The position numbers and the translations under genes are program-made. A DNA stretch of 64,000 bases, taken from the NCBI GenBank assembly GCA_051648405.1, contig JBOFFC010000134.1, positions 4,317-68,316 on the forward strand, in the 5' to 3' direction. The notes beneath the pieces are model-generated. The model saw only the letters and a program-made list of their open reading frames with translations. It was not told the DNA's origin and searched no databases. This document shows, one piece after another, positions 3,314 through 63,743 of this stretch. Position 1 is the first letter of the stretch, and the number at the start of each line of letters is the position of its first letter. This DNA comes from Lacipirellulaceae bacterium (GTDB lineage Bacteria > Planctomycetota > Planctomycetia > Pirellulales > Lacipirellulaceae).

Positions 3314-3907
3314 CTAGTTTGCGCGTTCGAAGATCAAGCGGCCGAACCGCGGGTCGGCGCCCTGCTCGATCAGCGTGAATCGCTCTTCGCCGGGGATCAA
3401 GCGCAACTCATAACGGCGCACCTCGCGGCGCGGCGACGCGGCGACGCGCTGCGCCGACGGGGCTTCTCCCGAGTCGCTGGCCCGGCGATCAACCGCGATC
3501 TCGAGCAGCGCAGCCCCCCCCTCGCCGGCGGTCGCCCGCCACGAGCCCTCGAGCGGCTCGGCCTCCTCGACGCCCCGCAGCACGAGCTTCGCCTTCCCTC
3601 GACCGGCGAGCGTCAGGTCGATGCGCACGTCGGCGAACGACTCGAGCTCGGTCGGCGCAACCCGATCGACCTTGTCGAGGGCTTCGGTCGGTAGGCCGTC
3701 GAGCGACGGGTCGTCGCGACCCTGGAGGGCCGCGTCGGCCGACCCGCCGGGGCGCGGCCACTCACGCCGCGAGCGTTCGACGGCCGTCTCGGGGCGGCCG
3801 GTCCATTCCCCTTCGAGTTGCTGCGACAGCCCGAACCGCGCGCTGCATCCCGCCACCGCCATTAGGAGGAACGACAGCGCCGCAAGTCGTCGGAGGGTCG
3901 GCGGCAC
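3314..3907 (-). CDS. putative lipoprotein
   Basis: C-terminal part of ORF 3314..4345. GTG at 3907 gives VPPTLRRLAALSFLLMAVAGCS with lipobox AVAGC. The upstream part of the ORF is Arg/Pro-rich junk overlapping the neighbouring gene. Confidence 0.5.
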   Translation of the reverse strand: MPPTLRRLAALSFLLMAVAGCSARFGLSQQLEGEWTGRPETAVERSRREWPRPGGSADAALQGRDDPSLDGLPTEALDKVDRVAPTELESFADVRIDLTLAGRGKAKLVLRGVEEAEPLEGSWRATAGEGGAALLEIAVDRRASDSGEAPSAQRVAASPRREVRRYELRLIPGEERFTLIEQGADPRFGRLIFERAN

Positions 3908-4001: not shown

Positions 4002-6023
4002 CTACCGGCTCCCTCGGGCCGCCGTCGGAGTCGCGGGGAGCAAGGCGCCAACGAGCTGCTGCCCAAACCAGACCACGAGGGCCAGCAAAGCGATCGCCAC
4101 GAGCGTGTAGAAGCCGAGGACGAGCCACGCCCCCAGCGGGGCGATCGGCGTGCGGGTCGGGGCGCCGGGGTCGCCCGCCTGCTGCGCGGCGTCGCGCATC
4201 GCCGCGTGCGCTTCGCGCCACGCGCTCCAGGACCCGGCGACCTTGCCGGCCGAGTCGCCGGCACGCTCGGTGGCCGCCCAGGCGGAGCTCGTCTTGCGCT
4301 GCGTCGGCCGCTTGCTCGCGGCCGCCATCCCCAACTGAGCAACACGGAACAGCACCCCGACGAGCGAGAACGGTAGCGCCACGAGTCCCCCGACCAGCTC
4401 CGATCTGCGCTTGGCGAGCGCTTCGCGGGCCTCGGCGAGCTTCTTCGCGAGCGCTGTCGCCTCGCGGGCGGGCACGGCGCTCGGCGGCCTCACCGAGGCC
4501 TCCTCGGCGGGTTCGCTCTGCGCTCGCGACTTATCGCCCGGTTCCTTCTGCGGCTCGTCCCTCGACGTAGCAGGCGCCGGTTCCTCCGCCGGTCGCAGCG
4601 GGTCCATCAGCTTCTGGATCTGTCCGCGCGACAGGGGCCCGCACAGGTAGCTCATCGCCCAGCGCGTCTGGAACACCCGCGGCGCGTCCTCGTGGACGTT
4701 GTTCATCAGGAAGACGCGGTTCCCGAGTCCGGCGAGGTTCCGCTCCATCTGCTGCTTGTCGAAGGTGCTGCCGGCCTGGGCCGAGGCCCCCTCGAGCCCC
4801 TCCATAACACGCATCTTGTCACGCTCGGTCTGCAAACGGCCGAGGAACCACGTGCCGCAGTTCGAGAGTCCCTTGTAGTCGAGGTCCACCGGGTTCTGCG
4901 TCGCCAGGACGACCCCCAAGCCGAACGCGCGGGCCTGCTTCAGCAGGGTGAGCATCGGCTGTTTTGACGGTGGGTTGGCCGTCGGCGGGAAGTAGCCGAA
5001 GACCTCGTCCATGTAGAGGATCGCCCGCAGGCCGCTCGTGCCCGACTGGGTGCGCATCCAGGCGAGCACCTCGCTAAGCAGGATCGTCACAAAGAACATC
5101 CGCTGCGCGTCGTCGAGGTGCGCGATCGAGACGACGGCGAGCCGTGGCTTGCCGGCGGGGTGCTCCGCAGTCGCCGGACCGTAGAGAAGCTCGGGGACGC
5201 TCAGCGCCTGCCCCTGCACCCAGCCGGCGAACGACGGCGAGGCGAGCAGGTTATTAAGGTCCATCGCCAGCTTCGAGCGCTGCTTCTCGGGGAAGAACTC
5301 GTCGAGCGGCAGCACGCCCACTTCGGTGAACGGAGGCGCCTTGATCTGCTTGATCAGGTCGGCGACGCCAACGTCCTTGCCCGCTTCCCAGGCGTGGGTC
5401 AGTACGGTCGATAGGAGGATGTGCTCGCGGCTGCGCACGGGGTCGGCGTCGATCCCCAGCAGACCCAACAGCCCCGAGACGGCCGAGCTGACACGCTGGC
5501 GGAAGGAGTCGTCGTCGTCGCGCACCTCCTTGGGGGGGGCGTCGAAGCTCCGCAACACGGTCATCGGCAGCCCGTGGCTCGCGCCGGGGGTGTAGACCCG
5601 CCGCTCGACCGAGTCGGCGTACCGCTTAACCCGCGCCGCGTCCTGGCCCCACTTGGCGAGCCCGTCGCGCCACAGCACGGCCGCCTCGGCCGCGGCGGCC
5701 TCGGGGGTTTGCCCCTTCCGCTGGGCGGCCGCCTCGTCGATCCACGGGCGGTAGTCCTCGGGGCGGGACTCGGGGAAGGCCAGCAACAGGTTCCCGAGGT
5801 CCCCCTTGGGGTCGATGGCGATCACCGGCACGCCGTCGAGGGCCGCCTCCTCGAGCAGCGACAGGCAGAGCCCCGTCTTGCCGCTGCCGGTCATGCCGAC
5901 GCACACGGCGTGGGTCGTCAGGTTCGAGCTCTTGTAGAGCAGTGGCTCGTCGGCCGTTTTGCCCGACGCCAGGTCGTGCCCGCGGCCCAGGTAGAACAGG
6001 TGCGGGGAGTCGATTTCGGGCAT
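4002..6023 (-). CDS. membrane-anchored HerA/FtsK-superfamily P-loop NTPase (DUF87/DUF853 YjgR-like)
   Basis: 673-aa ORF. Walker [19 protein letters not shown], Walker B-like AILYMDEVF and [11 protein letters not shown]. The C-terminal third is low-complexity plus two predicted TM helices ([17 protein letters not shown]; [23 protein letters not shown]). Confidence 0.75.
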
Positions 6024-7705: not shown

Positions 7706-7846
7706 AGTGCCTGGCGGGGAGAGAGAACAACAAGCGACAAGGGGCGCTGCGTGCGTCGTGCAGGGCCGCGGCGCCACAGGCAAGCCCGCAACCCGCGCAG
7801 GCCAGCCCGTGGCTCCACGGGGTTCAGCAAGGGGTGTCAGCTAAGG

Positions 7847-7921
7847 GGTGGCTGAGGGGTCTCGAACCCCCGACCTTCGGAATCACAATCCGACGCTCTA
7901 ACCAACTGAGCTACAGCCACC
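7847..7921 (-). tRNA. tRNA-His (anticodon GTG)
   Basis: Reverse complement reads GGTGGCTGTAGCTCAGTTGGTTAGAGCGTCGGATTGTGATTCCGAAGGTCGGGGGTTCGAGACCCCTCAGCCACC. Cloverleaf with GTG anticodon, encoded G-1 pairing with C73, and no encoded CCA. Confidence 0.9.
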
Positions 7922-16851: not shown

Positions 16852-17180
16852 GCCGGCAGTGGGCAGACGCCAGCGGGCAGACGCCAGCGGGCAGGAAGCA
16901 CGCCGCGCGGGTTCGCGCCAGCAGGACTGAACACGGAGGTTGTTGCGGAGCGTAAAGCGCGGTGCTACGACCGCACTTCGGCCGCTTCGCGTTAGCGGGT
17001 AAACTACCGACAAGGGGCTTCGGTGAAAACTAGTACCCGCTTCACCCCCCTCCCCCCGGGCGCCTGGAAAACGGCCTCCCCCTGAAGGGGGCGGGGGATT
17101 CCGAGCGCACCGCTGCCCCGGACAGCTAGGCGTCGCAACACCCCGCTTCCTGCCGGCTGCCCACCGCCCACTGCCCACTC
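16852..17180. repeat. inverted-repeat-bounded, ORF-less intergenic element (GGGCAG word family W1)
   Basis: Left arm 16852-16899 includes the 14-mer gggcagacgccagc in about 2.3 copies. Right arm 17145-17180 mirrors it; the inner ends ggcaggaagc / gcttcctgcc are exactly complementary. Spans nearly all of the 351-bp spacer between a stop (16835) and an ATG (17187). Confidence 0.55.
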
Positions 17181-17186
17181 CCCCCC

Positions 17187-26234: not shown

Positions 26235-26383
26235 CCGCAGATAAGCGCAGATGGACGCGGATGAAGCAGTCAGCTTTTAGCTTTCAGCAGTCAGCTGTCG
26301 GTGTTCAGAACGTTCGGCTGCTGAACGCTGATCGCTGACGGCTGATCGCTCCCCCATCTGCGTTTATCTGCGTTCATCTGTGG
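26235..26383. repeat. 149-bp nested imperfect palindrome splitting def and fmt (outer CGCAGAT words W3, inner GTCAGC/GCTTT words W2)
   Basis: Outer arms 26235-26266 and 26352-26383; inner mirrored cagcagtcagctg / gctgacggctg and gttcag..ctgaac. 26362-26385 is the exact reverse complement of 56546-56569 (24 of 24). Confidence 0.7.
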
Positions 26384-39180: not shown

Positions 39181-39274
39181 TCTCGCAAAGCCGCAAAGGC
39201 GCAAAGCTGTAGCCTGAGATTCGTCCGCCGGGCGAGCCCTCGCCTTCCTTGGCGTCTTCGCGCCTTTGCGTGAA
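39181..39274. repeat. about 95-bp hairpin element of the CGCAAAG word family (W6)
   Basis: Arms tctcgcaaagccgcaaaggcgcaaag and cttcgcgcctttgcgtgaa flank a loop containing gggcgagccctcgcc. Lies immediately upstream of top6A. Confidence 0.6.
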
Positions 39275-39297
39275 CCCTTTTGATCGACTCCGAAAGA

Positions 39298-40452
39298 ATG
39301 GCCAAGAAGAAACCCACCACCGGCGCCGCCCCCAAGAAGCCCGTCGTCCTCTCGCCGCGCGACAAGCGGACGATGGCCGCGCTGGTGGACCTCGCCGACG
39401 GCGTCGTCAAGGCGGCCGCGGGGAAGCGCGACCCGTATATGGACATCCCCAGCCGCACGCTGTCGAACGTCCGCTACTCGGCGCGGAAGCGGATCCTCGA
39501 GATGGGCTCGGGCAAGAACCGCCGCCAACTGTTCGACCTGTCGCAGGCCAAGAGCTACATGCGGACGATGCTCGTCGCCAGCGGCTGCAAGCGACTGCTG
39601 GACGAGGGGAAGACGACGAGTCTCCGGGGTCTGTTCTACATGCTGAAGCACACGATCGAGGGCTCGAAGGAGAACACCTTCGACGACCAGAACGAGTGCG
39701 ACACGATCATCGAGGACACCGAAGTCCTCTTGAGCAGCATCCGCGAGGAGCTGCACCTGTACGCCGAGAACCGGGGGGCGATGGTCGGCGCCATCTCGTT
39801 CACTGACAAGGGGGACGAGATCAACTGCGCGAGGATGGGATCGGGGGGCTACGCGATCCCGTCGATCGTCGAGCCCGACATCATCGAGCTCGACAAGAAG
39901 AAGTGCAGCGCCGACTTCATCCTGCACGTCGAGAAGGGGACCGTCTGGCAGCGCTTCAACGAAGACCGCTTCTGGGAGAAGCACAACTGCATCCTTACGC
40001 ACGGCTCGGGCCAACCTCCGCGCGGCGTGCGGCGGATGCTCTATCGGCTGCACAACGAGCTGAGCCTGCCGATCTACTGCGTGCTCGACAACGACCCGTG
40101 GGGGTACTACATCTACAGCGTCATCAAGCAGGGCTCGATCAACCTTGCGTACGAGTCGCAGCGGATGGCGATCCCCGAGGCCAAGTACCTCGGCCTGCGG
40201 AGCATCGACTACGACCGCTGCCAGTTGAGTGAAGGGGTCAAGATTGCCCTCTCCGACACCGACCGCAAGCGCGCCAAGCAGGTCGCCAAGTACCCCTGGT
40301 TCGAGAAGAAGCCGAAGTGGCAGGCCGAGATCCAGCGGATGATCAAGAACGACTTCAAGCTCGAGGTCGAATCGCTGATCTCCAAGGACATCAGCTACGT
40401 GACCGAGGTCTACGTGCCGGAACGGCTCGAGGCGCAGGACTGGCTGGACTGA
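39298..40452 (+). CDS. top6A: DNA topoisomerase VI subunit A (Spo11-like)
   Basis: 5Y-CAP region with SLRGLFYMLKH, Toprim Glu in LHVEKGT and a DxD block (VLDNDPWGYYIY). Start at ATG 39298 (the track ORF begins at TTG 39280). Confidence 0.9.
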   Translation: MAKKKPTTGAAPKKPVVLSPRDKRTMAALVDLADGVVKAAAGKRDPYMDIPSRTLSNVRYSARKRILEMGSGKNRRQLFDLSQAKSYMRTMLVASGCKRLLDEGKTTSLRGLFYMLKHTIEGSKENTFDDQNECDTIIEDTEVLLSSIREELHLYAENRGAMVGAISFTDKGDEINCARMGSGGYAIPSIVEPDIIELDKKKCSADFILHVEKGTVWQRFNEDRFWEKHNCILTHGSGQPPRGVRRMLYRLHNELSLPIYCVLDNDPWGYYIYSVIKQGSINLAYESQRMAIPEAKYLGLRSIDYDRCQLSEGVKIALSDTDRKRAKQVAKYPWFEKKPKWQAEIQRMIKNDFKLEVESLISKDISYVTEVYVPERLEAQDWLD

Positions 40453-40475: not shown

Positions 40476-40586
40476 TCTCGCAAAGGCGCGAAGGCGCAAA
40501 GAACGCGCGGGGGAGATGCAGGCCACGCGTGCTGGGCTCGCCCCGCCGCTTTGCGCGTCCTCTGCGTCTTTGCGGCTTTGCGTGCC
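40476..40586. repeat. about 110-bp hairpin element of the CGCAAAG word family (W6)
   Basis: Left arm tctcgcaaaggcgcgaaggcgcaaagaacgcgcg and right arm ...ctttgcgcgtcctctgcgtctttgcggctttgcgtg (about 25 of 32 complementary). Loop contains gggctcgccccgcc. Lies immediately downstream of top6A. Confidence 0.6.
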
Positions 40587-48799: not shown

Positions 48800-49843
48800 T
48801 TGAGCGGCGCCCCCACACCGACTCCGGCCCCCGGTAAGACGCGCAATCTGGGCGAAGTGCTCCAGGAGTTCCGGCAGCACCGGCACGTAATGCAGCAAGA
48901 GCTGCAGAAGGTGATCGTCGGCCAAGACGCAGTGATCGAGCAAGTCTTCGCGGCGATCTTCACCCGCGGTCACTGCCTGCTCGAGGGGGTCCCGGGCCTC
49001 GCCAAGACGCTGATGGTCTCGACCCTGGCGCGGATCCTCGACCTGGGTTTCCAGCGGATCCAGTTCACCCCCGACCTGATGCCCTCGGACATCACGGGGA
49101 CGAACGTCCTCGACGAGGACGACGCCGGGAAGCGCAGCTTCCGCTTCGTGCCGGGGCCGATCTTCGCCAACATCCTGCTCGCGGACGAGATCAATCGCAC
49201 CCCCCCAAAGACCCAGGCCGCCCTGCTCCAAGCGATGCAAGAGCGCGAGGTCACCGTCGGCCAGACGACCTACGAGCTCCCCAACCCGTTCTTCACGATC
49301 GCCACTCAGAACCCGATCGAGCAGGAAGGGACCTACCCCCTCCCCGAGGCGCAGCTCGACCGCTTCATGTTCAACATCAGGGTCGATTACCCGACCCGCG
49401 ACGAAGAGGAACGGATCCTCGCCAGCACCACCCGCGGCGAGAAGCCCGAGGTGAACAAGGTCCTGTCGGGCAAGGCGATCCTGAACGTGCAGAAGCTGGT
49501 CGGCTCGGTGGCGGTGAGCGAGTACGTGATCAAATACGTCGCGGCGCTCGTGAGGGCGACCCGGCCGCGCGACGAGTCGGCGCCGAAGTTCGTCCGCGAG
49601 CTGGTCGATTGGGGCGCCGGCCCCCGCGCGGGGCAGTTCCTGATCCAGGGTGGCAAGGCGCTCGCCGCGATGGACGGCCGCTTCAGCGTCTCGATCGAGG
49701 ACGTGCAGAAGATCGCCCTCCCCGTCCTGCGGCACCGCGTGGCGGCGAACTTCCAAGCACAAGCCGAGGGGATGACGACCGAGGACATCGTCCTGCGGCT
49801 CGTGAAAGAGACGCCGACGCCGGAGGTGCCGAAGTTCGCGTAG
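48800..49843 (+). CDS. moxR: MoxR-type AAA+ ATPase
   Basis: 347-aa ORF with Walker A GVPGLAKT, Walker B LLADEINR and the typical IVGQD...FQRIQFTPDLMPSDITG. Confidence 0.9.
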   Translation: MSGAPTPTPAPGKTRNLGEVLQEFRQHRHVMQQELQKVIVGQDAVIEQVFAAIFTRGHCLLEGVPGLAKTLMVSTLARILDLGFQRIQFTPDLMPSDITGTNVLDEDDAGKRSFRFVPGPIFANILLADEINRTPPKTQAALLQAMQEREVTVGQTTYELPNPFFTIATQNPIEQEGTYPLPEAQLDRFMFNIRVDYPTRDEEERILASTTRGEKPEVNKVLSGKAILNVQKLVGSVAVSEYVIKYVAALVRATRPRDESAPKFVRELVDWGAGPRAGQFLIQGGKALAAMDGRFSVSIEDVQKIALPVLRHRVAANFQAQAEGMTTEDIVLRLVKETPTPEVPKFA

Positions 49844-50306
49844 CGGGCAGCGGGCAGCAGGCAGAGGGCAGCAGGCAGTATCAACTACGGAGAACGTTTC
49901 TTGGCGGTCAAGAACTATCGGGACCTGATCGCTTGGCAGAAAGCGATGGACTTGGCGGAGCAGGTCTACGCGCTGACGCAGAGCTTTCCTCCGGACGAGC
50001 GCTTCGGCATGACGTCGCAACTCCGACGGTCGTCGGTCTCGGTTCCGTCGAACATCGCCGAGGGCCAAGGACGGTTCTCCGACCGCGACTTCCACCGATT
50101 CCTCTCCATTGCTCACGGCTCGTTGCGCGAGGCTGAAACACAGCTCGAGCTTGCAACGAGGCTGCGGTTCGTCAATGCCGAGAAGGTCGCACCGCTCTCA
50201 GACCTCGCCGCCGAGGTGGGCCGCCTCATCGTCGGCCTCGCCCGCTCCCTCAAACCCTGACCCCGCCACACTGCCTGCTGCCCTCTGCCTGCTGCCCTCT
50301 GCCCAC
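49843..50306. mobile_element. putative IVS-like cassette 1: 36-nt inverted repeats enclosing a four-helix-bundle gene
   Basis: IR-L 49843-49878 and IR-R 50271-50306 are reverse complements at 34 of 36 positions. IR-L begins on the last base of the moxR stop; IR-R ends 6 nt before the DUF58 ATG. Confidence 0.5.
49901..50260 (+). CDS. four-helix-bundle protein (23S rRNA intervening-sequence protein family, TIGR02436/PF05635)
   Basis: 119-aa ORF with YRDLIAWQKAMDLAEQVY...ERFGMTSQLRRSSVSVPSNIAEGQGR...FLSIAHGSLREAETQLELA, the family signature. Confidence 0.85.
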   Translation: MAVKNYRDLIAWQKAMDLAEQVYALTQSFPPDERFGMTSQLRRSSVSVPSNIAEGQGRFSDRDFHRFLSIAHGSLREAETQLELATRLRFVNAEKVAPLSDLAAEVGRLIVGLARSLKP

Positions 50307-50312
50307 TCTCTT

Positions 50313-51209
50313 ATGCCCTCCGTCGAGAGCTACCTGAAGCCCGAGGTCATCCGCCAGATCGCGCGGCTGGACCTTCGTGCGCAGTTCATCGTCAAGGGCT
50401 TCTTGCAGGGGCTGCACGCCAGCCCGTTCCACGGGTTCTCGGTCGAGTTCAGCGAGCACCGCAAGTACACCACCGGCGACGACCCCAAGGACATCGACTG
50501 GCTCGCCTACGCCAAGACCGACCGCTACTACGTCAAGAAGTTCGAGGCCGAGACCAACATCACCGGCTACCTGGCGATGGACCTCAGCAAGTCGATGGCC
50601 TACAGCTACCGGCAAGAGCTGACGAAGTTCGACTACTCGATCTGCCTCGCCGCGGCGCTCACCTACTTGATGGTCCACCAGCAGGACCCCGTGGGCCTCG
50701 TGGCGTTCACCAACCGCATCACGCACTCGCTCCCCCCCAAGAGCAAGCGCTCGCAGATCGGCACGCTCCTCGCGCTGCTCGCGCGGCTGAAGCCCGAGGG
50801 GGAGACCGACGTCGGCGCCAGCCTCACGCAGCTCGCCGCCATGCTGCGGCACGCGAGTTTGGTGATGGTCTTCAGCGACCTGCTGACCGACGAGGCGGGG
50901 GTCATCGCCGGCCTGCGTCGCCTGCGGCACGGCGGCCACGACGTGATCCTGTTCCACGTCCTCGACGAAGCCGAGGTGACGTTCCCCTTCCGCGGCCTGG
51001 TGGATTTCGAAGAGCCCGAGTCGGGCCAGCGCATGGAGGTCGATGCCGACGGCTTCCGCGCGGACTACCTCGAACAGGTCGCAAAGCTCCGCGAGACGTA
51101 CCGCCAAGAGTGCTTCCAGAGCGGAGTTGACTACGTGCCGCTCGACACCAGCATGCCGTTCGACCGCGCGTTGACGGAGTACCTGGCGACGCGGAGGCAG
51201 AGGGCATAG
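50313..51209 (+). CDS. DUF58 domain protein
   Basis: Start at ATG 50313. HRKYTTGDDPKDIDWLAYAKTDRYYVKKFEAE signature. Canonical partner of MoxR. Confidence 0.85.
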   Translation: MPSVESYLKPEVIRQIARLDLRAQFIVKGFLQGLHASPFHGFSVEFSEHRKYTTGDDPKDIDWLAYAKTDRYYVKKFEAETNITGYLAMDLSKSMAYSYRQELTKFDYSICLAAALTYLMVHQQDPVGLVAFTNRITHSLPPKSKRSQIGTLLALLARLKPEGETDVGASLTQLAAMLRHASLVMVFSDLLTDEAGVIAGLRRLRHGGHDVILFHVLDEAEVTFPFRGLVDFEEPESGQRMEVDADGFRADYLEQVAKLRETYRQECFQSGVDYVPLDTSMPFDRALTEYLATRRQRA

Positions 51210-51739
51210 GGGCTGTCGGCTGTTGGCTTTCGGCTGTCAGCACGAAGGGAGGCTGTTGGGTTGGCTTTGCGGTCGGCTTCGGTTCGTAGGGGAGGCTGCG
51301 ATGCAGGATTTTCGAAACTTGGACGCTTGGAAGCTCGCGCACGCGATGACGCTCGACGTGTACCGACAGACGGCGTCATTCCCGACCGACGAGCGGTATG
51401 GGATCACCTCGCAGCTTCGCCGTGCGGCTGGTTCAATCGGCGCCAACCTCGCCGAAGGATGCGGGCGTGGCAGCGACGCGGACTTCGCCCGATTCGTCCA
51501 GATCGCCTTGGGCTCCGCCAGCGAGGTGGAGTACCACTTGCTCCTCGCACGCGACCTGGGGCACCTCGCCGCCGGCCGCCACGACGACCTGGAGCAGACC
51601 ATTCAGCGCATCAAGCGAATGCTGACGTCGCTGCTGAAGCGCCTCCGCGGCGCCGGCCCAGTTCCAACTCCTGGAGAAAACTGAAAATTTGAACCCCGCG
51701 TCCGTCCCCGACAGCCAATAGCCGACAGCCGAAAGCCCC
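51209..51739. mobile_element. putative IVS-like cassette 2: 30-nt inverted repeats enclosing a second four-helix-bundle gene
   Basis: IR-L 51209-51238 (ggggctgtcggctgttggctttcggctgtc) and IR-R 51710-51739 are complementary at 26 of 30 positions. IR-L begins on the last base of the DUF58 stop; IR-R ends 2 nt before the TTG start at 51742. Confidence 0.5.
51301..51684 (+). CDS. four-helix-bundle protein (23S rRNA IVS protein family), second copy
   Basis: 127 aa from ATG 51301: FRNLDAWKLAHAMTLDVY...ERYGITSQLRRAAGSIGANLAEGCGR...ALGSASEVEYHLLLA. Confidence 0.85.
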   Translation: MQDFRNLDAWKLAHAMTLDVYRQTASFPTDERYGITSQLRRAAGSIGANLAEGCGRGSDADFARFVQIALGSASEVEYHLLLARDLGHLAAGRHDDLEQTIQRIKRMLTSLLKRLRGAGPVPTPGEN

Positions 51740-51741
51740 CT

Positions 51742-53970
51742 TTGGCCTTCCTCACCCCCGCACTGCTCGCCGGCGTGCTGCTGATCGCGGCGCCGATCTT
51801 GCTGCACCTCGCCACGCGACGGCAGCCGCGGCGCGAGGTGTTCCCGGCGCTGCGCCTGCTGCGGAAGGAGATGCGGCGCACGGAGACGCGGCTGCAACTG
51901 CGGCGCTGGTTGCTGCTCGCCCTGCGCTGCGCTGCGATCGCGCTGCTCGCGCTGGCGCTCGCGCGCCCCGTGATGCGACCTCAACCGGTGGGCGGGGAGG
52001 CCGGACTGGGCGCCGCAACGGGGCCGGCCGGCGAGGGGCTTGCGCTCGGCGTTGTGATCGACAACGCGCAGGGCGCCGCCTATCGGAGCGACAACCGCAC
52101 GCGGCTCGACGCGGCCCGTGAGAACGCCGGGTGGTTGCTCGAACAAGCGCCGAGCGACGCCCGCGTGACGCTCGCCGACCGCTCGCGCGGGGGGCGGGCG
52201 ATCGACGGCGACCGCGACGCGGCCCTCGTGCGGCTCGGGCGGATGACGATCGACCCCGCGTCGCGCTCGCTCGGCGCCGCGGTCCGCGACGCCCTGGAGC
52301 GACTCGCCGAGGCGCCCGCCGCGCGGCGCGAAGCGTACGTGTTCACCGACTTCTCCGCCGGCGCTTGGGACGACGCGGCGGAGAAGGACGTCCGCGACGC
52401 GCTCGACGAGCGACCGGGAGTCGCCGTGCGGCTAGTCGATGTCGGCGTCCCCGAGCCTCGCAACGTGGGGGTCGTCGCCGCGACGCCGGCGAGCGAGTCG
52501 CTCGTGGTCGGCGAGCCTCTCGGCGTGCGCGTCACGCTCGCGGCTGCCGGCGCGTGGCCCGAGGGGATCGTCGCCCAACTGCTCCTCGACACGGGGGACG
52601 GCCCCGTGAAACGGGACGAGCGGAAGGTCGATCTGGAGGCCCCCACCGGCGACGGCGTGCAGCGCGAGACGTCGATCGAGTTCCTCGTCACCGGCCTCGA
52701 GCGAGGCTTCCACTCCGGCGAGGTGCGAGTGCTCGCCGCCGACGCCCTCGCCGAGGACGACCAGCGCCCGTTCTGCGTCGAGGTGACCGAGCCGCGGGCC
52801 GTCTGGTGCGTGGGCGCCAGCGAAGACGACGCGGTGTTCGTCCGCCAGGCGCTCGCCCCCGCGGGGGTCGCCGCGCGATTCCGGGTCGTGGCGACGTCGC
52901 TCGCCGAGTTCGAGTCACCCGCTCGCGCGCGCGAGCTTGCCTCCTCAAGTCCCCCGGCCTGCGTGTGGCTCCTCGACCCGCCGCCGTTCGACGATCCAGC
53001 CGCATGGCGTCGCCTCGCCGACTACACCGGCGCGGGAGGTTCGGTCGCGATCGCCTTGGGACGCAGCGCTTCGACCGAGGGAATGGGCTCTACCGAGGGA
53101 CTGGGCTCTACCAAGGGAGTGGGCTCGACCGACGCGCAGGCCCTCGTCCCCGCGCGGCTGCGCTGGCGGTCGCGCGAAGAGACGTACCTGCGGCCGACGA
53201 CTTACGCGCACCCGGCGATCGCCGCGCTCTCCGACTACGCCGAGGCGATCCCCTGGAGCGCTTTCCCCGTGTTCCAGCGCTGGGAGCTCGAGTCGGTCGA
53301 CCCGGCGGCGGCGATCGTCGCGACGTACGCCGACGGCTCGCCGGCGATCGTCGAGCGCCGCAGCGGCGCGGGGCGCGTGCTGCTGGTGACGACGTCGTTC
53401 TCCGACGGACTCAACGAGCCCGACCCGTGGAACCTGCTCCCCACGGGAGAGGACCCGTGGCCGTTTGTGCTGCTCGTCAATTCTCTGACCGACTACCTGA
53501 GCGGCGCCGGCTCGGCGCGGCTCAACTACACGGCGGGAGAGTCGGTCACGGTCCCCCTGCCCCCCGCGTTCGACGGCCCGGGGTTCATCCTGCGCACGCC
53601 GCGCGGCGAGGCGCTGCGGCAGGCGATCCCCCCCGGCCGACGCGACGTGGTGCTGGGCGTCGCCCAAGAGCCGGGCGCCTACCGCGCCGAGGCGGGGGGT
53701 GCCTCGGCGACGCTCGACCGGCGGTTCGCCGTGGCGCTCGACCCCGCGACGTCGCGCGTCGAACGAATCGACGCGGCGGCCCTGGTCGAGCGGCTCGGGC
53801 CCGACCGCGTGCGCCTGGTCGATGACCGCGCCGAGCTCGCAGCGTCGATCACGGTCGGCCAAGTCGGCCACGAGCTGTACGGCTGGGCGCTGGGCCTGGT
53901 GGCGCTCGTGTTCGCCGCCGAGCACCTCGTCTCGAATCGCTTCTACCGTGACGTAAAGGAAGGTCGATAG
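51742..53970 (+). CDS. BatA-N-terminal-domain (TIGR02226-like) membrane protein
   Basis: TTG start. The N-terminus (M)AFLTPALLAGVLLIAAPILLHLATRRQPRREVFPALRLL is the aerotolerance-regulator N-terminal signature. Large extracytoplasmic region and a C-terminal TM. Confidence 0.7.
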   Translation: MAFLTPALLAGVLLIAAPILLHLATRRQPRREVFPALRLLRKEMRRTETRLQLRRWLLLALRCAAIALLALALARPVMRPQPVGGEAGLGAATGPAGEGLALGVVIDNAQGAAYRSDNRTRLDAARENAGWLLEQAPSDARVTLADRSRGGRAIDGDRDAALVRLGRMTIDPASRSLGAAVRDALERLAEAPAARREAYVFTDFSAGAWDDAAEKDVRDALDERPGVAVRLVDVGVPEPRNVGVVAATPASESLVVGEPLGVRVTLAAAGAWPEGIVAQLLLDTGDGPVKRDERKVDLEAPTGDGVQRETSIEFLVTGLERGFHSGEVRVLAADALAEDDQRPFCVEVTEPRAVWCVGASEDDAVFVRQALAPAGVAARFRVVATSLAEFESPARARELASSSPPACVWLLDPPPFDDPAAWRRLADYTGAGGSVAIALGRSASTEGMGSTEGLGSTKGVGSTDAQALVPARLRWRSREETYLRPTTYAHPAIAALSDYAEAIPWSAFPVFQRWELESVDPAAAIVATYADGSPAIVERRSGAGRVLLVTTSFSDGLNEPDPWNLLPTGEDPWPFVLLVNSLTDYLSGAGSARLNYTAGESVTVPLPPAFDGPGFILRTPRGEALRQAIPPGRRDVVLGVAQEPGAYRAEAGGASATLDRRFAVALDPATSRVERIDAAALVERLGPDRVRLVDDRAELAASITVGQVGHELYGWALGLVALVFAAEHLVSNRFYRDVKEGR

Positions 53971-60086: not shown

Positions 60087-61441
60087 CCAGTAGCGCCGCC
60101 AACTCGCCAGCCAATGGCGCCGAGGGGGACCTCCGCGACGCGCTCGCCGCGGTCGAGCGCGCGATCGCCCAGCTCGAGCAGGGGGACTCGGGCGAGCGGC
60201 ACGCGCTCGCCGCCGAGCTCCGCGAGCTGCAAGACCTCGCCGAGAAGCTGCGGCACGGGCGCGTCGAAGTGGCCGTCTTTGGCGAGGTATCGACCGGAAA
60301 GAGCGCGCTCGTCAACGCGCTGGCCGGGTCGAACGTGGCGGGGGTGAACGCCCGGGCGGGGTGGACCCGCGACGTCATCCGCACGGCGTGGGGGGGGACC
60401 GAGCTCCACCTCGGCGGCTTGGGGGACTCGGAGCTGGTGCTCGTCGACACGCCCGGGCTCAACGAGGTCCAAGGGGAAGCCCGCGCCGACCTGGCGCGGT
60501 ACGCCGCCGAGCGGGCCGACGTCGTGGTGTTCGTCACCGACTCGGACCTCAACGAGACCGAGCACACGGCCCTCGCCGAGGCGGCCGCGCTGCACAAGCC
60601 GCTGCTGCTGGTGCTGAACAAGGCCGACCTCTACCTCCCCGCCGACCGCGACAAGCTCGCCGCGGCGCTCCGCGCGCCGCGCGTGACGCGGCTCGTGGGG
60701 GGCCCCGAGAACGTGGTGTTCGCGTCGGCCGACCCGCGCGAGGTCGAGCACCTGATCGAAGGCCCCGACGGCCGCACACGCAGCGAGTGGCGCAAGCCCA
60801 GGCCCGACGTCGATGCCGTGAAGGGGCGGATCCTCGAGCTGCTTGCGGACGAAGGGAAGGCGCTCGTGGCGCTCAGCGCGTCGATGTACGCCGCCGACCG
60901 CACCGACCGCGTCGCGGCGCTGCGGGTGAGGATGCGCGCCGGCCGCGCCGAGCGCGTCGTCTGGACGTACGCCGTCGCGAAGGCGCTCGCCGTGGCGTGG
61001 AACCCCGCGCCGGTGTTCGACGTGGCCGGGGGCCTAGCGTTCGACGCGACGATGGTCGTCACGCTGGCCGGTGTGTACGGAATCCCGATCACCACCGCCG
61101 GGGCGCGCGAGCTAGTGCTGTCGATCCTCAAAGCGGCCGGCTGGATGATCGCCACCGAACTGGCGGTCAGCGTCGGGGCCTCGCTCGCCAAGGCGCTCAC
61201 GCTCGGCGGCAGCACGTGGCTGACGGCGATCCCCCAGGGCGCAGCGGCCGGCTACGGCAGCTACCTCGTGGGCCAAGCCGCGCGCTGCTACTTCGAGCAA
61301 GGGGCAAGCTGGGGCCCCCACGGCCCGAAGAGCGTCGTCGCACGGATCCTCAAGAACACCGACAAGGGACAGGTCGTCGGCCGCCTGAAGGACGAGATTA
61401 GGGCGAAGCTGGGGAAGAACCGGCACGGGGCGGGGCAATGA
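60083..61441 (+). CDS. GTPase with DUF697-like C-terminal domain (paralogue 2)
   Basis: GTGA overlap with paralogue 1. G1 GEVSTGKSALVNAL, G3 DTPGL and G4 NKAD. C-terminal NPAPVFDVAGGLAFDATMVVTLAGVY. No N-terminal TM. Confidence 0.75.
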   Translation: MTSSAANSPANGAEGDLRDALAAVERAIAQLEQGDSGERHALAAELRELQDLAEKLRHGRVEVAVFGEVSTGKSALVNALAGSNVAGVNARAGWTRDVIRTAWGGTELHLGGLGDSELVLVDTPGLNEVQGEARADLARYAAERADVVVFVTDSDLNETEHTALAEAAALHKPLLLVLNKADLYLPADRDKLAAALRAPRVTRLVGGPENVVFASADPREVEHLIEGPDGRTRSEWRKPRPDVDAVKGRILELLADEGKALVALSASMYAADRTDRVAALRVRMRAGRAERVVWTYAVAKALAVAWNPAPVFDVAGGLAFDATMVVTLAGVYGIPITTAGARELVLSILKAAGWMIATELAVSVGASLAKALTLGGSTWLTAIPQGAAAGYGSYLVGQAARCYFEQGASWGPHGPKSVVARILKNTDKGQVVGRLKDEIRAKLGKNRHGAGQ

Positions 61442-62066
61442 GCAATGAGCAATGACCAAACGGGGCTGTCAGCTTTCGGCGGTCGGCTTTCAGCGAGAAC
61501 AACTTCCGTGAGCACAAACCGATGGGTGTTCGACGATCCTCCGAACTGCGCTGTGTTTACTGAGCGAGTCGTGATCAGTGGCGACGCGCACATCGGGAGA
61601 GTGTCCCGTGAATCGGACGATGGAGCATGGCAGTTCCTTGCCTACGGCAGCGAGGCTCGCGCGGAAGATGCAAGACTAGTTGGCCTGGGGACTATCGTTC
61701 GCATCGACCCCACCGTCGAGTTGCTCGCCGACCTTCCGCTCGGTTGGTACGCCTTCAGGGCACGTCCCGACGATCCGTGGCAACGAGTGCCCGAGGCGGG
61801 CGCCACACCCAACCCGTGACGGTTGGGCGCGCTGCCGATCAATCCCGCCGCACAGCGTCCCACGCTGACGCGCGTGGGCATGGCGCCCCACCAACGCGGG
61901 CGAACCTTGTACCCACTTCACACTGCTGGACAAGCCAGCAGTGGCACCGTCCTCTGCGTCTTTGCGTCTCTGCGTGAGTTTTCCTTCGAGGCTCGCCAGC
62001 CAAGCGACGCCCCTGACCACCCACCACCGACCACGGACCCTTTGGTCATTGGTGCTTGGTCATTTG
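61435..62066. mobile_element. putative cassette 3: TGACCAA/GGTCATT-word inverted repeats enclosing a small ORF
   Basis: Left arm 61435-61460 (gcaatgagcaatgagcaatgaccaaa) and right arm 62041-62066 (tttggtcattggtgcttggtcatttg); the inner 11 nt are exactly complementary, about 20 of 26 overall. The arms overlap the stop codons of both flanking convergent genes. Confidence 0.45.
61508..61819 (+). CDS. small hypothetical protein, DUF2185-like by pattern
   Basis: GTG 61508 chosen because the track ATG at 61445 lies inside repeat words. WVFDDPPNCAVFT...ESDDGAWQFLAYG...IVRIDPTV resembles DUF2185. Low certainty. Confidence 0.4.
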   Translation: MSTNRWVFDDPPNCAVFTERVVISGDAHIGRVSRESDDGAWQFLAYGSEARAEDARLVGLGTIVRIDPTVELLADLPLGWYAFRARPDDPWQRVPEAGATPNP

Positions 62067-63623: not shown

Positions 63624-63743
63624 CAAGCACCAAGCACCAATGACCAAGAGGCGTTACCACGCCATCGTCACTTTGGTCATTGGTCATTGGGATTTGGTCA
63701 TTCGGCGCTTGCTCCCGCTCACTGCCCCCTGCCCACTGCCCCT
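63623..63743. repeat. stop-to-start spacer made of a W4 (GGTCATT) hairpin plus a W1 (GCCCACTGCCC) arm
   Basis: Left arm 63623-63649 (gcaagcaccaagcaccaatgaccaag) and right arm 63671-63712 (ctttggtcattggtcattgggatttggtcattcggcgcttgc), then ctcactgccccctgcccactgcccct up to the ATG at 63744. Confidence 0.55.

Follow-up and report, generated by a model that had tools for sequence, protein, structure and literature searches.

The window, which is the whole 64,000-nucleotide stretch of DNA analysed here, contains a moxR-DUF58-batA operon in which a small gene for a four-helix-bundle (4HB) protein, enclosed by inverted arms, lies between moxR and DUF58 and another between DUF58 and batA (Table 1). 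The moxR stop codon is TAG at 49841 to 49843, DUF58 starts with an ATG and batA with a TTG, and the Pfam BatA match runs from residue 1 of the batA product. No sigma-70-like promoter or intrinsic terminator was found in the region from 48.5 to 52.2 kb.

Table 1. Host cistrons and components of the two cassettes, in window coordinates.
Feature	Position	Strand	Evidence
moxR-type AAA+ ATPase gene, upstream host cistron	48800..49843	+	PF07726 AAA_3, E 1.1e-64
Cassette 1 left arm	49842..49879	+	Inverted repeat I1, 38 nt, 95% complementary; TRF period 7, 5.3 copies
Cassette 1 cargo, 4HB gene, 119 aa	49901..50260	+	PF05635, TIGR02436
Cassette 1 right arm, CTGCCYN heptamers	50270..50307	+	Inverted repeat I1; TRF period 7/14
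DUF58/VWA gene, middle host cistron	50313..51209	+	PF01882, E 3.3e-51
Cassette 2 left arm	51209..51238	+	Inverted repeat I3, 30 nt, 87% complementary; TRF period 7
Cassette 2 cargo, 4HB gene, 127 aa	51301..51684	+	PF05635, TIGR02436
Cassette 2 right arm, GACAGCC-type heptamers	51710..51739	+	Inverted repeat I3; TRF period 7; folding
BatA-N-domain gene, downstream host cistron	51742..53970	+	PF07584, E 3.6e-21, residues 1-76

TRF assigns a period of 7 to all four arms, each built of tandem words from a single heptamer family. The left arm of cassette 1 consists of about five heptamers (AGCGGGC, AGCGGGC, AGCAGGC, AGAGGGC, AGCAGGC and a final AGT) and begins within the moxR stop codon, at its second base, while its partner stops 5 nt short of the DUF58 ATG. 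In cassette 2, the left arm reads GGCTGTC, GGCTGTT, GGCTTTC and GGCTGTC, beginning within the DUF58 stop codon at its third base, and the right arm stops 2 nt short of the batA TTG. In both cassettes, the arms open inside the upstream stop codon and finish 2 to 6 nt before the downstream start. An earlier first-pass annotation, which had placed arms here with 34 of 36 and 26 of 30 positions complementary, agrees with the pairs recovered by our repeat search. An Rfam search of the window returned a single tRNA only, with no rRNA and no known RNA family over the arms.

The cassette 1 gene has a TTG start with GGAGA 6 nt upstream, and the cassette 2 gene an ATG start preceded by GGGGAGG. The assignment of one PF05635/TIGR02436 reading frame to each unit was borne out, as both proteins scored above the model cutoffs: the cassette 1 protein matched PF05635 (E 1.9e-39, 134.5 bits, cutoff 33.8), TIGR02436 (129.9 bits, cutoff 24) and NF008911 (140 bits, cutoff 137), and the cassette 2 protein matched PF05635 (E 8.9e-37, 126 bits, cutoff 33.8) and TIGR02436 (124.6 bits, cutoff 24). 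The “four helix bundle protein” family has at least 7988 matches and two PDB structures, 2GSC and 2RLD, to which the cassette 1 protein aligned with E values of 1.1e-26 and 2.9e-8, respectively, and which contain 5 chains per entry. A four-helix-bundle fold and pentameric assembly of the window protein are thus predicted by homology only, without a predicted structure. For the cassette 1 gene, dN/dS was 0.11 against a Botrimarina orthologue (L081), and values for intact 4HB genes ranged from 0.11 to 0.21. Judged by these ratios, purifying selection acts on the intact proteins, and no role, be it in mobility, maintenance or host benefit, is assigned to them. PADLOC gave no defence-system match for either window protein.

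We then folded both units. The terminal stem of each was present in the minimum free energy and centroid folds and was far more stable than expected from shuffles (z = −7.1 for cassette 1 and −3.95 for cassette 2, with 0/100 shuffles as stable in either case). The first-pass annotation had staked its reading on arm complementarity better than that of shuffled words, and this held only in part: folding beats the shuffles, but 8 of the 120 word-order permutations of one arm in cassette 1, and 4 of 24 in cassette 2, still reached the observed score. Because the arms are tandem arrays of one heptamer family, their complementarity resides mostly at the level of word type, and pairing of word-variant order beyond this is only marginal. 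Arms of cassette 1 scored 0 against those of cassette 2. Mismatches between arms, read on the sense strand, comprised 62 G:U-compatible against 36 A:C pairs (p=0.011), a modest bias that, as a sequence signal, points to a possible constraint at the transcript level. Aeoliella straminimaris (L021) carries an orthologue of cassette 2 at its own DUF58-batA junction, with 75% amino acid identity and the same heptamer words. The arms of the two copies differ by word variants and show no clean compensatory changes, and so DNA-level processes could maintain the pairing. Three further ideas about the arms were rejected: with only three GGG tracts, the cassette 1 arm is unlikely to form a G-quadruplex; TAG heptamers as a three-frame stop rule suit TAGGCAG-type arms and not GGGCAGC or GGCTGTC; and a match between the 4HB pentamer and five repeats fits weakly, as the median arm of about 31 nt holds about 4.4 units.

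The same junctions were compared in 80 related Pirellulales loci, centred on DUF58 and totalling 932 kb, in which moxR orthologues are 77 to 90% identical. The moxR-DUF58 junction (J1) ranged from 1 to 1497 nt and the DUF58-batA junction (J2) from −4 to 646 nt. It had been claimed that removing the units would leave nearly abutting cistrons, and such spacers do exist: J1 is just 1 to 16 nt long in 7/69 loci and J2 just −4 to +8 nt in 17/61. We distinguished three junction states, namely empty, hairpin only (heptamers without cargo) and hairpin with cargo, and a search for empty junctions in relatives returned empty, filled and decaying copies at both sites. At J2, a decay series leads from an intact copy (L006) through a 5′ deletion (L010) and a copy retaining the 3′ third only (L020) to a frameshift (L033); 4HB genes decaying in place leave reading-frame fragments and arm remnants. 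The same 4HB subfamily occurs at J1 and at J2 (L071/L026), in both cases with arms that begin in the upstream stop codon, and all 14 4HB copies located at junctions of moxR operons point the same way as the operon.

Could the 4HB genes be genuine functional members of this lineage's MoxR-DUF58-BatA system? The 932 kb contains 10 PF05635 reading frames, and every one sits within J1 or J2 of a moxR-DUF58-batA operon; moreover, 5/80 unrelated loci from the census described below adjoin distant moxR/DUF58 genes. Against this, only about 10/81 such operons carry a 4HB gene, at either junction and sometimes truncated or frameshifted, and the same junctions hold unrelated cargo (DarT-Macro, GxxExxY, retropepsin-like and Y1 transposase genes). 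The subfamily also recurs in PDH, lpx, que, acc and ara operons. Functional membership is therefore largely refuted already by distribution, and we consider it highly improbable.

A census of relatives, collected with a single 4HB protein (hb1) as query, extended the pattern beyond this operon. Arms were present at 68/80 hb1-like loci (0/100 shuffles reached the score), the best arm period was 7 in 68/68 of these, and an AGT core (YAGT, every 7 nt) was found in 59/68. Enclosure by inverted repeats that abut stop and start codons, which the first-pass annotation had proposed to check genome-wide, is thus the rule. Between non-homologous contexts, arm word similarity against protein identity gave a rho of −0.40 (permutation p<0.002); at unrelated insertion sites, arms of like word type go with similar 4HB proteins. 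Neighbouring genes were housekeeping operon partners, e.g., lpxA-lpxI, queD-radical SAM and moxR-DUF58. The same subfamily lies at the PDH E1beta-E2 junction in Tautonia and 3′ of lptD in a Tepidisphaeraceae genome, with arms that again begin in the upstream stop codon. Cassettes of this design were found in several bacterial phyla, including accB-[4HB]-accC with GGGAATC heptamer arms in Xanthomonas and Stenotrophomonas and araD-[4HB]-araA with ATTGACA heptamer arms in Bacteroides. Both family members with solved structures are cargo of such cassettes, at X. campestris accB-XCC0516-accC and B. thetaiotaomicron araD-BT0352-araA. Protein clusters at 90% identity were mostly confined to single contigs, with no sign of recent bursts. 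Viral contigs yielded five hb1 relatives, only two of them with arms, and no hb2 relatives, and hence no case for phage carriage of cassettes.

Heptamer arrays are not private to the cassettes. Other intergenic sites commonly hold period-7 arrays, 134 in the 932 kb compared with 37 of period 6 and 57 of period 8, and similar arrays occur at other intergenic sites of the window; the arms are arrays of a genome-wide class. A family HMM search in six frames detected no 4HB remnants in the other heptamer-bounded units of the window, and one of these, the 16.9-kb unit, folded no better than shuffles (z −0.6) and matched no Rfam family. It is possible, though doubtful, that the heptamer hairpins are themselves the primary, autonomous element, a REP/STRR-like class of intercistronic hairpins that would stabilise mRNA, mark sites of processing or serve as landing pads, with 4HB and other small genes as passengers in the loop and arms that are not 4HB specific. 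Cargo-less hairpins span J1 exactly from stop to start in six loci (L016, L047, L029, L049, L015 and L011), hairpins of different word families are nested at window positions 26236-26372 and in L001, the identical nested arms of L001 and L002 enclose non-homologous interiors, and a GxxExxY gene is flanked by period-9 word arms. The arms might therefore be something separate from the 4HB gene. On the other side, arm word type follows protein similarity at unrelated loci, 4HB genes are armed in the proportion given above, and the L020 remnant retains a 4HB fragment, so some of the short units, at least, derive from cassettes by decay. Autonomous hairpins are, moreover, compatible with the explanation we prefer rather than exclusive of it.

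A different reading takes the arms as DNA-level terminal inverted repeats on which a trans-acting recombinase or transposase would work, much as for MITEs or REPINs, with the RNA stem incidental. Insertion polymorphism, the same cassette subfamily at different loci and the conserved YAGT core would all fit, as would the Y1 (IS200/RAYT-like) gene with flanking GTAG-plus-palindrome repeats at J1 in L053. However, the cassettes have no linked transposase and show no target-site duplication, nor was a direct duplication seen outside the arms; orientation is always that of the host operon, mismatches favour G:U on the sense strand, and the widely differing arm word families are hard to reconcile with one DNA-binding enzyme. 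We therefore regard this reading as unlikely.

Instead, we consider it likely that the units belong with the ORF-bearing intervening sequences (IVSs) of 23S rRNA as one kind of promoterless hitch-hiker cassette, with a stem that is probably an RNase III site. That they are insertion units is well supported: they lie co-oriented in spacers of a few nucleotides between cistrons, are present or absent among relatives, occupy different junctions and operons, and have arms that co-vary with the 4HB gene. The proposal that IVS-like insertion units reside in an mRNA operon is thereby upheld by relatives, folding and census, whereas RNA processing, the mechanism of mobility and protein function are inferred. 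In the proposed scheme, a PF05635/TIGR02436 4HB gene with its own ribosome-binding site, inside two inverted arrays of about four to five heptamers, would be transcribed by read-through within the operon mRNA. Its arms would pair into a 30- to 38-bp stem, at the foot of which the stop codon of the preceding cistron meets the start codon of the next. As long as the stem is uncut, a ribosome that terminates at this stop codon would open the lowest base pairs of the stem and free the start codon, so that insertion would leave the coupling of the host cistrons intact. The stem would most likely be cut by RNase III, as in Coxiella and Leptospira IVSs, freeing the cassette RNA; in the absence of transcript or end-mapping data, cleavage and “looping out” of mRNA stems rest on analogy alone. 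Similarly, since no recombinase or target-site duplication was identified, the term “mobile” rests on distribution alone.

A bolder extension, to which we give little credence at present, would make the PF05635/TIGR02436 family pan-bacterial transposase-less cassettes whose heptamers are iterons bound by their own (pentameric) 4HB protein, which would mediate cassette maintenance, RNA processing or movement. The STRR, GGGAATC and GGGGATT repeats would then be arms or relics, and IVSs copies that landed in rRNA.

The element type tolerates gaps of a few bases between coupled cistrons (moxR-DUF58-batA, accB-accC, araD-araA, lpxA-lpxI and PDH E1beta-E2), which could offer synthetic biology a natural design for adding a gene to an operon without polar effects. 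It matters for annotation because cassettes split operons and arms mask start codons. Old questions, such as the purpose of heptamers, the origin of IVSs and the role of S23p/Avd-like proteins, become directly testable in X. campestris and B. thetaiotaomicron, model organisms for which genetics and RNA-seq are established. We found no literature that connects PF05635 genes with heptamer arms or with junctions in operons; subscription journals were mostly not covered, and a prior description is not excluded.

Several known systems share features with the cassettes. The units do not qualify as MITEs, as they encode an intact protein under purifying selection; hairpin-only relatives would satisfy the non-coding criterion. 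Like integron cassettes, they are small units, mostly of a single ORF, that lack a promoter and would be expressed by read-through, and they have imperfect inverted repeats and varied cargo at one site. Integron cassettes, however, have one 3′ attC hairpin as recombination site and form an array beside an integrase, whereas here two arms pair across the ORF of single units inside a housekeeping operon, and no integrase was seen in the window. With DGR Avd they share a homologous fold family, and the PDB relatives have five chains as the Avd pentamer does, but the window cassettes neighbour moxR, DUF58 and batA without a nearby reverse transcriptase or template/variable repeat, and scores fell below the Avd cutoffs (NF033474, 28.2 bits, cutoff 80; PF22296, 30.4 bits, cutoff 40). 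REP/REPIN-RAYT systems are likewise dispersed short extragenic hairpin repeats between or after operon genes, with inverted pairs around a gene. Their repeats are single palindromes after GT(A/G)G mobilised by Y1, whereas cassette arms are heptamer arrays that pair across the 4HB gene, are not self-palindromes and enclose no Y1_Tnp gene; a true REP/RAYT-like unit does occur at J1 in L053.

Intergenic heptamer repeats have been known since about 1990, and the cyanobacterial STRR are heptamer repeats. Described examples include GGGAATC in Xanthomonas and GGGGATT in Nostoc (Rehm 2015) and TAACTGA in Beggiatoa (MacGregor 2015). The arms meet the definition of this class, being intergenic, with about four tandem 7-nt units, often in convergent inverted pairs near start codons. 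Unlike here, those papers interpreted the repeats as motifs for G-quadruplex formation or regulation and drew no link to PF05635 or cassettes. The tables of Rehm 2015 nevertheless list repeat #15 in the gap that separates bccP from XCC0516, whose product is the 4HB protein of PDB 2GSC; they also list a 129-nt array 1 nt downstream of alr0548 and 55 nt upstream of alr0549, a gene annotated as encoding a four helix bundle protein.

A close likeness is to the IVSs of Coxiella and Leptospira, with which the units share a PF05635 protein, a length of about 430 to 530 nt, a stem of about 28 to 38 bp formed by terminal inverted repeats, an ORF prone to decay and, as inferred here, reliance on transcription of the host (PMC4990558). 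The Coxiella burnetii IVS has a 28-bp terminal stem with tandem GACAGAT heptamers in the arm, and the first of these repeats is where RNase III cuts it in vitro (PMC4990558). The heptamers make the likeness closer than the first-pass annotation knew. The window units meet the IVS criteria of a long enclosing stem, arm heptamers and a PF05635 protein, but not that of location: IVSs sit in a 23S rRNA helix such as helix 45, and these units in mRNA spacers between the moxR, DUF58 and batA coding sequences. RNase III cleavage is known for the Coxiella IVS and only inferred by analogy here, and intact ORFs of the window type are under purifying selection, whereas S23p is apparently not expressed. 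ORF-bearing 23S IVSs, the 4HB family and heptamer repeats have so far been separate subjects, each without known function; this comparison suggests that they are facets of one element type.

Both cassettes of the moxR-DUF58-batA operon were found as the first-pass annotation had described them, with the arms, the enclosed ORFs, the host genes and the abutment on stop and start codons all in place, and the finding is real. The stop codons upstream of both cassettes contain the first bases of the left arms, and the right arms end 5 nt (cassette 1, at the moxR-DUF58 junction, J1) and 2 nt (cassette 2, at the DUF58-batA junction, J2) before the downstream start. Each unit has a Shine-Dalgarno-like sequence and a start codon of its own. 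A database entry identical to the cassette 1 protein (hb1) is a four helix bundle protein from a Lacipirellulaceae MAG, and the 64-kb window contains no further PF05635-type ORF. When folded as RNA, each unit was closed by its long terminal stem in both the MFE and the centroid structure, and none of 100 dinucleotide-shuffled sequences was as stable (z −7.1 for cassette 1, −3.95 for cassette 2). A simple scan of 48.5-52.2 kb detected no sigma-70-like promoter or intrinsic terminator.

All four arms have a period of 7 (or 14) according to Tandem Repeats Finder, with the words GGGCAGC/AGGCAGN in cassette 1 and GGCTGTC/GGCTTTC in cassette 2. Because each arm is an array of one word family, the complementarity is mainly that of a word family with its own reverse complement; arms of cassette 1 scored zero against those of cassette 2. 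Complementarity beyond that of shuffled words, on which the initial description depended, was clear for the word family and only marginal for word order, the observed score being reached in 8 of 120 permutations for cassette 1 and 4 of 24 for cassette 2. Comparable arrays occur at other intergenic sites of the window, several of them as inverted pairs.

Features of the operon, of other repeat sites in the window, and of related loci (L-numbers, loci of relatives)
Feature	Position	Remarks
MoxR AAA_3 ATPase gene	48800-49843	host gene
Cassette 1 arms	49842-49879 / 50270-50307	38 nt, 95% complementary (inverted-repeat search)
Cassette 1 ORF	49901-50260	PF05635 E 1.9e-39; also TIGR02436; above NF008911 subfamily cutoff
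DUF58/VWA protein gene	50313-51209	host gene
Cassette 2 arms	51209-51238 / 51710-51739	30 nt, 87% complementary (inverted-repeat search)
Cassette 2 ORF	51301-51684	PF05635 E 8.9e-37; also TIGR02436
BatA-N protein gene	51742-53970	host gene; GATase1-like gene next
GAGAGGA / CCTCTCT hairpin	1184-1219 / 1295-1330	36 nt, 78%, 75-nt loop; between two minus-strand genes
Period-14 array (GGGGTGTCAGCAA)	7819-7860 and 7847-7920	overlaps end of minus-strand tRNA gene
Third inverted pair, GGGCAGA / CTGCCCA type	16861-16899 / 17145-17183	39 nt, 74%; fills gap from CorA-like gene stop (16835) to AstE/AspA-like gene ATG (17187)
Nested hairpins, two word families	26236-26372	between two minus-strand genes; outer arms CGCAGAT-type, period ~9-10, 55 nt, 75%; inner arms CAGCTNT heptamers, 30 nt, 77%
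Topoisomerase VI subunit A / Spo11-type gene	39274-40452	PF21180 E 2.9e-58
CGCAAAG(C/G) 8-mer arrays	39184-39207 and 40479-40501	like-oriented, either side of the topoisomerase gene
CAATGAG / TTGGTCA heptamer arms	61437-61463 / 62038-62064	27 nt, 81%
ORF inside these arms	61523-61819	98 aa; sole family match weak (Imm33 E 0.014)
CCAATGA/TTGGTCA hairpin without cargo	63630-63690	18 nt, 89%; directly past methyltransferase gene stop
Solo CTGCCCC array	63722-63742	after the preceding hairpin; ends 3 nt before ATG 63746
DarT-Macro fusion	L005 4763-6000	J1
GxxExxY/PDDEXK_3 gene	L018 5224-6000	J1; period-9 word arms, 41 nt, 80%
bPH_2 gene and Y1 (IS200/RAYT-like) gene	L053 3616-5121	J1; GTAG-plus-palindrome repeats flank Y1
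Retropepsin-like proteins	L077, L078, L051, L059	J1; ~125 aa
hb1-like copy 1	Botrimarina	J1
hb1-like copy 2	Tautonia rosea	2-oxoacid dehydrogenase operon, E1-beta to E2 gap
hb1-like copy 3	Tepidisphaeraceae genome	downstream of lptD

The third inverted pair folds no better than shuffles (z −0.6), its 245-nt interior holds no ORF and no four-helix-bundle (4HB) remnant, and the pair may be what is left of a completely decayed cassette. At 61437-62064 the arms are followed inward by unpaired GGCTTTC and GACCACC arrays, as if the site were chimeric or had been hit more than once. TTGGTCA is the STRR2 heptamer of cyanobacteria. Nesting like that at 26236-26372 also occurs at J1 of L001, and the CGCAAAG word beside the topoisomerase gene is the arm word around the GxxExxY gene of L018. 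The tRNA gene overlapped by the period-14 array was the sole Rfam match in the window.

We scanned one genome per GTDB species for the DUF58 protein and obtained 80 Pirellulales loci, among which the closest DUF58 relative is that of Botrimarina colliarenosi (81%). In these loci J1 measures between 1 and 1497 nt and J2 between −4 and 646 nt. The first-pass annotation had expected almost abutting cistrons in the absence of the units, and empty junctions were indeed present in relatives, with J1 at most 16 nt long in 7 of 69 loci and J2 at most 8 nt in 17 of 61. Many junctions of 67 to 96 nt consist of a hairpin alone, the heptamer arms of which span from stop codon to ATG and the word of which varies by genome (TGGAGAG, AATGATG, GGGATTA, GGGATTC, TGAATGA; the AATGATG arms are 27 nt long and 100% complementary). 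Cargo is present in the larger junctions. An iterative HMM search of all ORFs in the 80 loci and the window (932 kb) recovered 10 PF05635 ORFs, every one within J1 or J2. Aeoliella straminimaris carries an orthologue of cassette 2 at J2, with 75% amino acid identity and identical heptamer words, while the orthologue of cassette 1, at J1 of a Botrimarina sp., has 34-nt arms that are 100% complementary. A single 4HB subfamily forms a decay series at J2: the copy of L006 is intact, L010 has lost the 5′ half of the ORF, L020 retains just the 3′ third, and L033 carries a frameshift; a close relative of this subfamily lies at J1 of L071. Orientation follows the operon in all 14 copies from moxR operons. 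The cassette units are insertions, and they decay in place.

As the other cargo in the table illustrates, small genes of selfish or defence type gather generally at J1, which behaves as a hot spot for them. At J1 of L001 (5485-6005) and L002 (525-1040), identical nested arms, CGCGGAG outer and CGCGGAT inner, enclose non-homologous ORFs, with one additional nested hairpin layer in L001; this pattern suggests that cargo was swapped inside constant arms or that insertion occurred into hairpin loops. Common arms around different cargo, together with hairpin-only sites and nested hairpins, speak for hairpins as the primary entity and genes as their passengers. We regard this as possible, if rather doubtful, and it is compatible with the reading of the cassettes as intervening-sequence-like insertions in an mRNA operon.

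Genomic context was examined for three hb1-like proteins encoded on long contigs, and in all three copies the heptamer arms start in the upstream stop codon. A metagenome scan added 80 hb1-like loci with 50-64% identity; 80 of the 83 were evaluable, three at contig edges being left out. Flanking inverted arms of 17-58 nt were present in 68 of the 80 loci (0 of 100 shuffles matched), and the best period was 7 in every armed locus. The consensus heptamer contained AGT in 59 of 68, typically as NGN(C/T)AGT, against a chance expectation of ~11%. In 40 loci, as judged by a crude ORF heuristic, a co-directional stop codon lies at most 8 nt from the left arm; in 42, a co-directional start lies at most 36 nt beyond the right arm; 23 loci satisfy both. 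The neighbours are housekeeping partners, including lpxA-lpxI (three loci), queD-type PTPS-radical SAM and moxR-DUF58; distant moxR/DUF58 genes adjoin five hb1-like loci. It is highly improbable that the 4HB protein is dedicated to the MoxR system, since its distribution is patchy, decaying and spread across several operons. In 2233 cassette pairs with non-homologous flanks, heptamer similarity increased with protein identity (Spearman rho −0.40, permutation p<0.002), the mean word distance being 1.0 at 70% identity or more versus 3.1 below 50%. Given that word similarity tracks protein identity across non-homologous flanks, arms and gene travel or co-evolve together. Intact ORFs showed dN/dS values of 0.11-0.21 in comparisons with unsaturated dS, indicating purifying selection.

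The closest solved structure to the cassette 1 protein is PDB 2GSC (E 1.1e-26, five chains), which is XCC0516 of Xanthomonas campestris; the gene lies between accB and accC. The left arm (GGGAATC GGGAGTG GAGAATC GGGAATC) starts 6 nt past the accB stop and the right arm abuts the accC ATG, with 30 nt of 87% complementarity; Stenotrophomonas has the same armed arrangement. The family of a second structure (2RLD, Bacteroides) has its gene between araD and araA and a paralogue between aminotransferase and DAHP synthase genes, both with four ATTGACA heptamers per side (31 nt, 97% and 94%). Arm mismatches recur at the 7th base of every heptamer in a Xanthomonas locus (L169, 2930-2959 / 3343-3372), and a G·A mismatch recurs at the 5th base in L016 (5934-5963 / 5972-6001), which fits slippage spreading a change through one array while the partner arm is unchanged. 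GGGAATC repeats in Xanthomonas (70-75 inverted pairs) and GGGGATT repeats in Nostoc are catalogued by Rehm et al., whose supplementary tables list one repeat between bccP and XCC0516; in the same tables a 129-nt array lies 1 nt downstream of alr0548 and 55 nt upstream of alr0549, which another paper lists as a four helix bundle protein. Rehm et al. never connected the repeats with the PF05635 gene family, and neither MacGregor, who described TAACTGA repeats, nor a Nostoc preprint, which postulated an unidentified heptamer-binding partner, makes this tie. The connection was absent from the literature searched, which did not cover most subscription journals. In the 23S rRNA intervening sequence (IVS) of Coxiella, the terminal stem is 28 bp and three or four GACAGAT heptamers, differing in number among strains, precede the S23p ORF; in vitro, RNase III cleaves where the first repeat begins (PMC4990558).

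On the sense strand, G:U-compatible arm mismatches numbered 62 versus 36 A:C mismatches (p=0.011), a modest excess that favours a constraint at the transcript level without proving it. Arms acting purely in DNA, as transposon ends, cannot be dismissed and seem unlikely to us. Neither a recombinase nor a target duplication was seen for the cassettes, nor any recent burst of multiple copies. Near-perfect RNA duplexes of 30-38 bp are classic targets of RNase III. From such a duplex, and from the cutting of the sole tested element of like architecture, we infer that the most likely fate of the operon transcript would be processing by RNase III at the arms. The stem is predicted to pair the nucleotides just past the upstream stop with those just ahead of the downstream start, and a ribosome terminating at that stop would melt exactly the part masking the next start codon. 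An insertion of 460-530 nt could thus leave the host cistrons coupled.

The earlier proposal of IVS-like insertions in an mRNA operon is upheld. Heptamer-armed cassettes span Planctomycetota, Xanthomonadales and Bacteroidota, and Nostoc on the evidence of published tables, a pattern of interest to those who study bacterial repeats, mobile elements or the processing of RNA. Unlike an IVS, the window cassettes do not reside in rRNA, the defining feature, and their excision by RNase III is inferred by analogy alone; for both reasons we do not call them IVSs; the element is best filed as an IVS-type PF05635 cassette resident in mRNA operon junctions.
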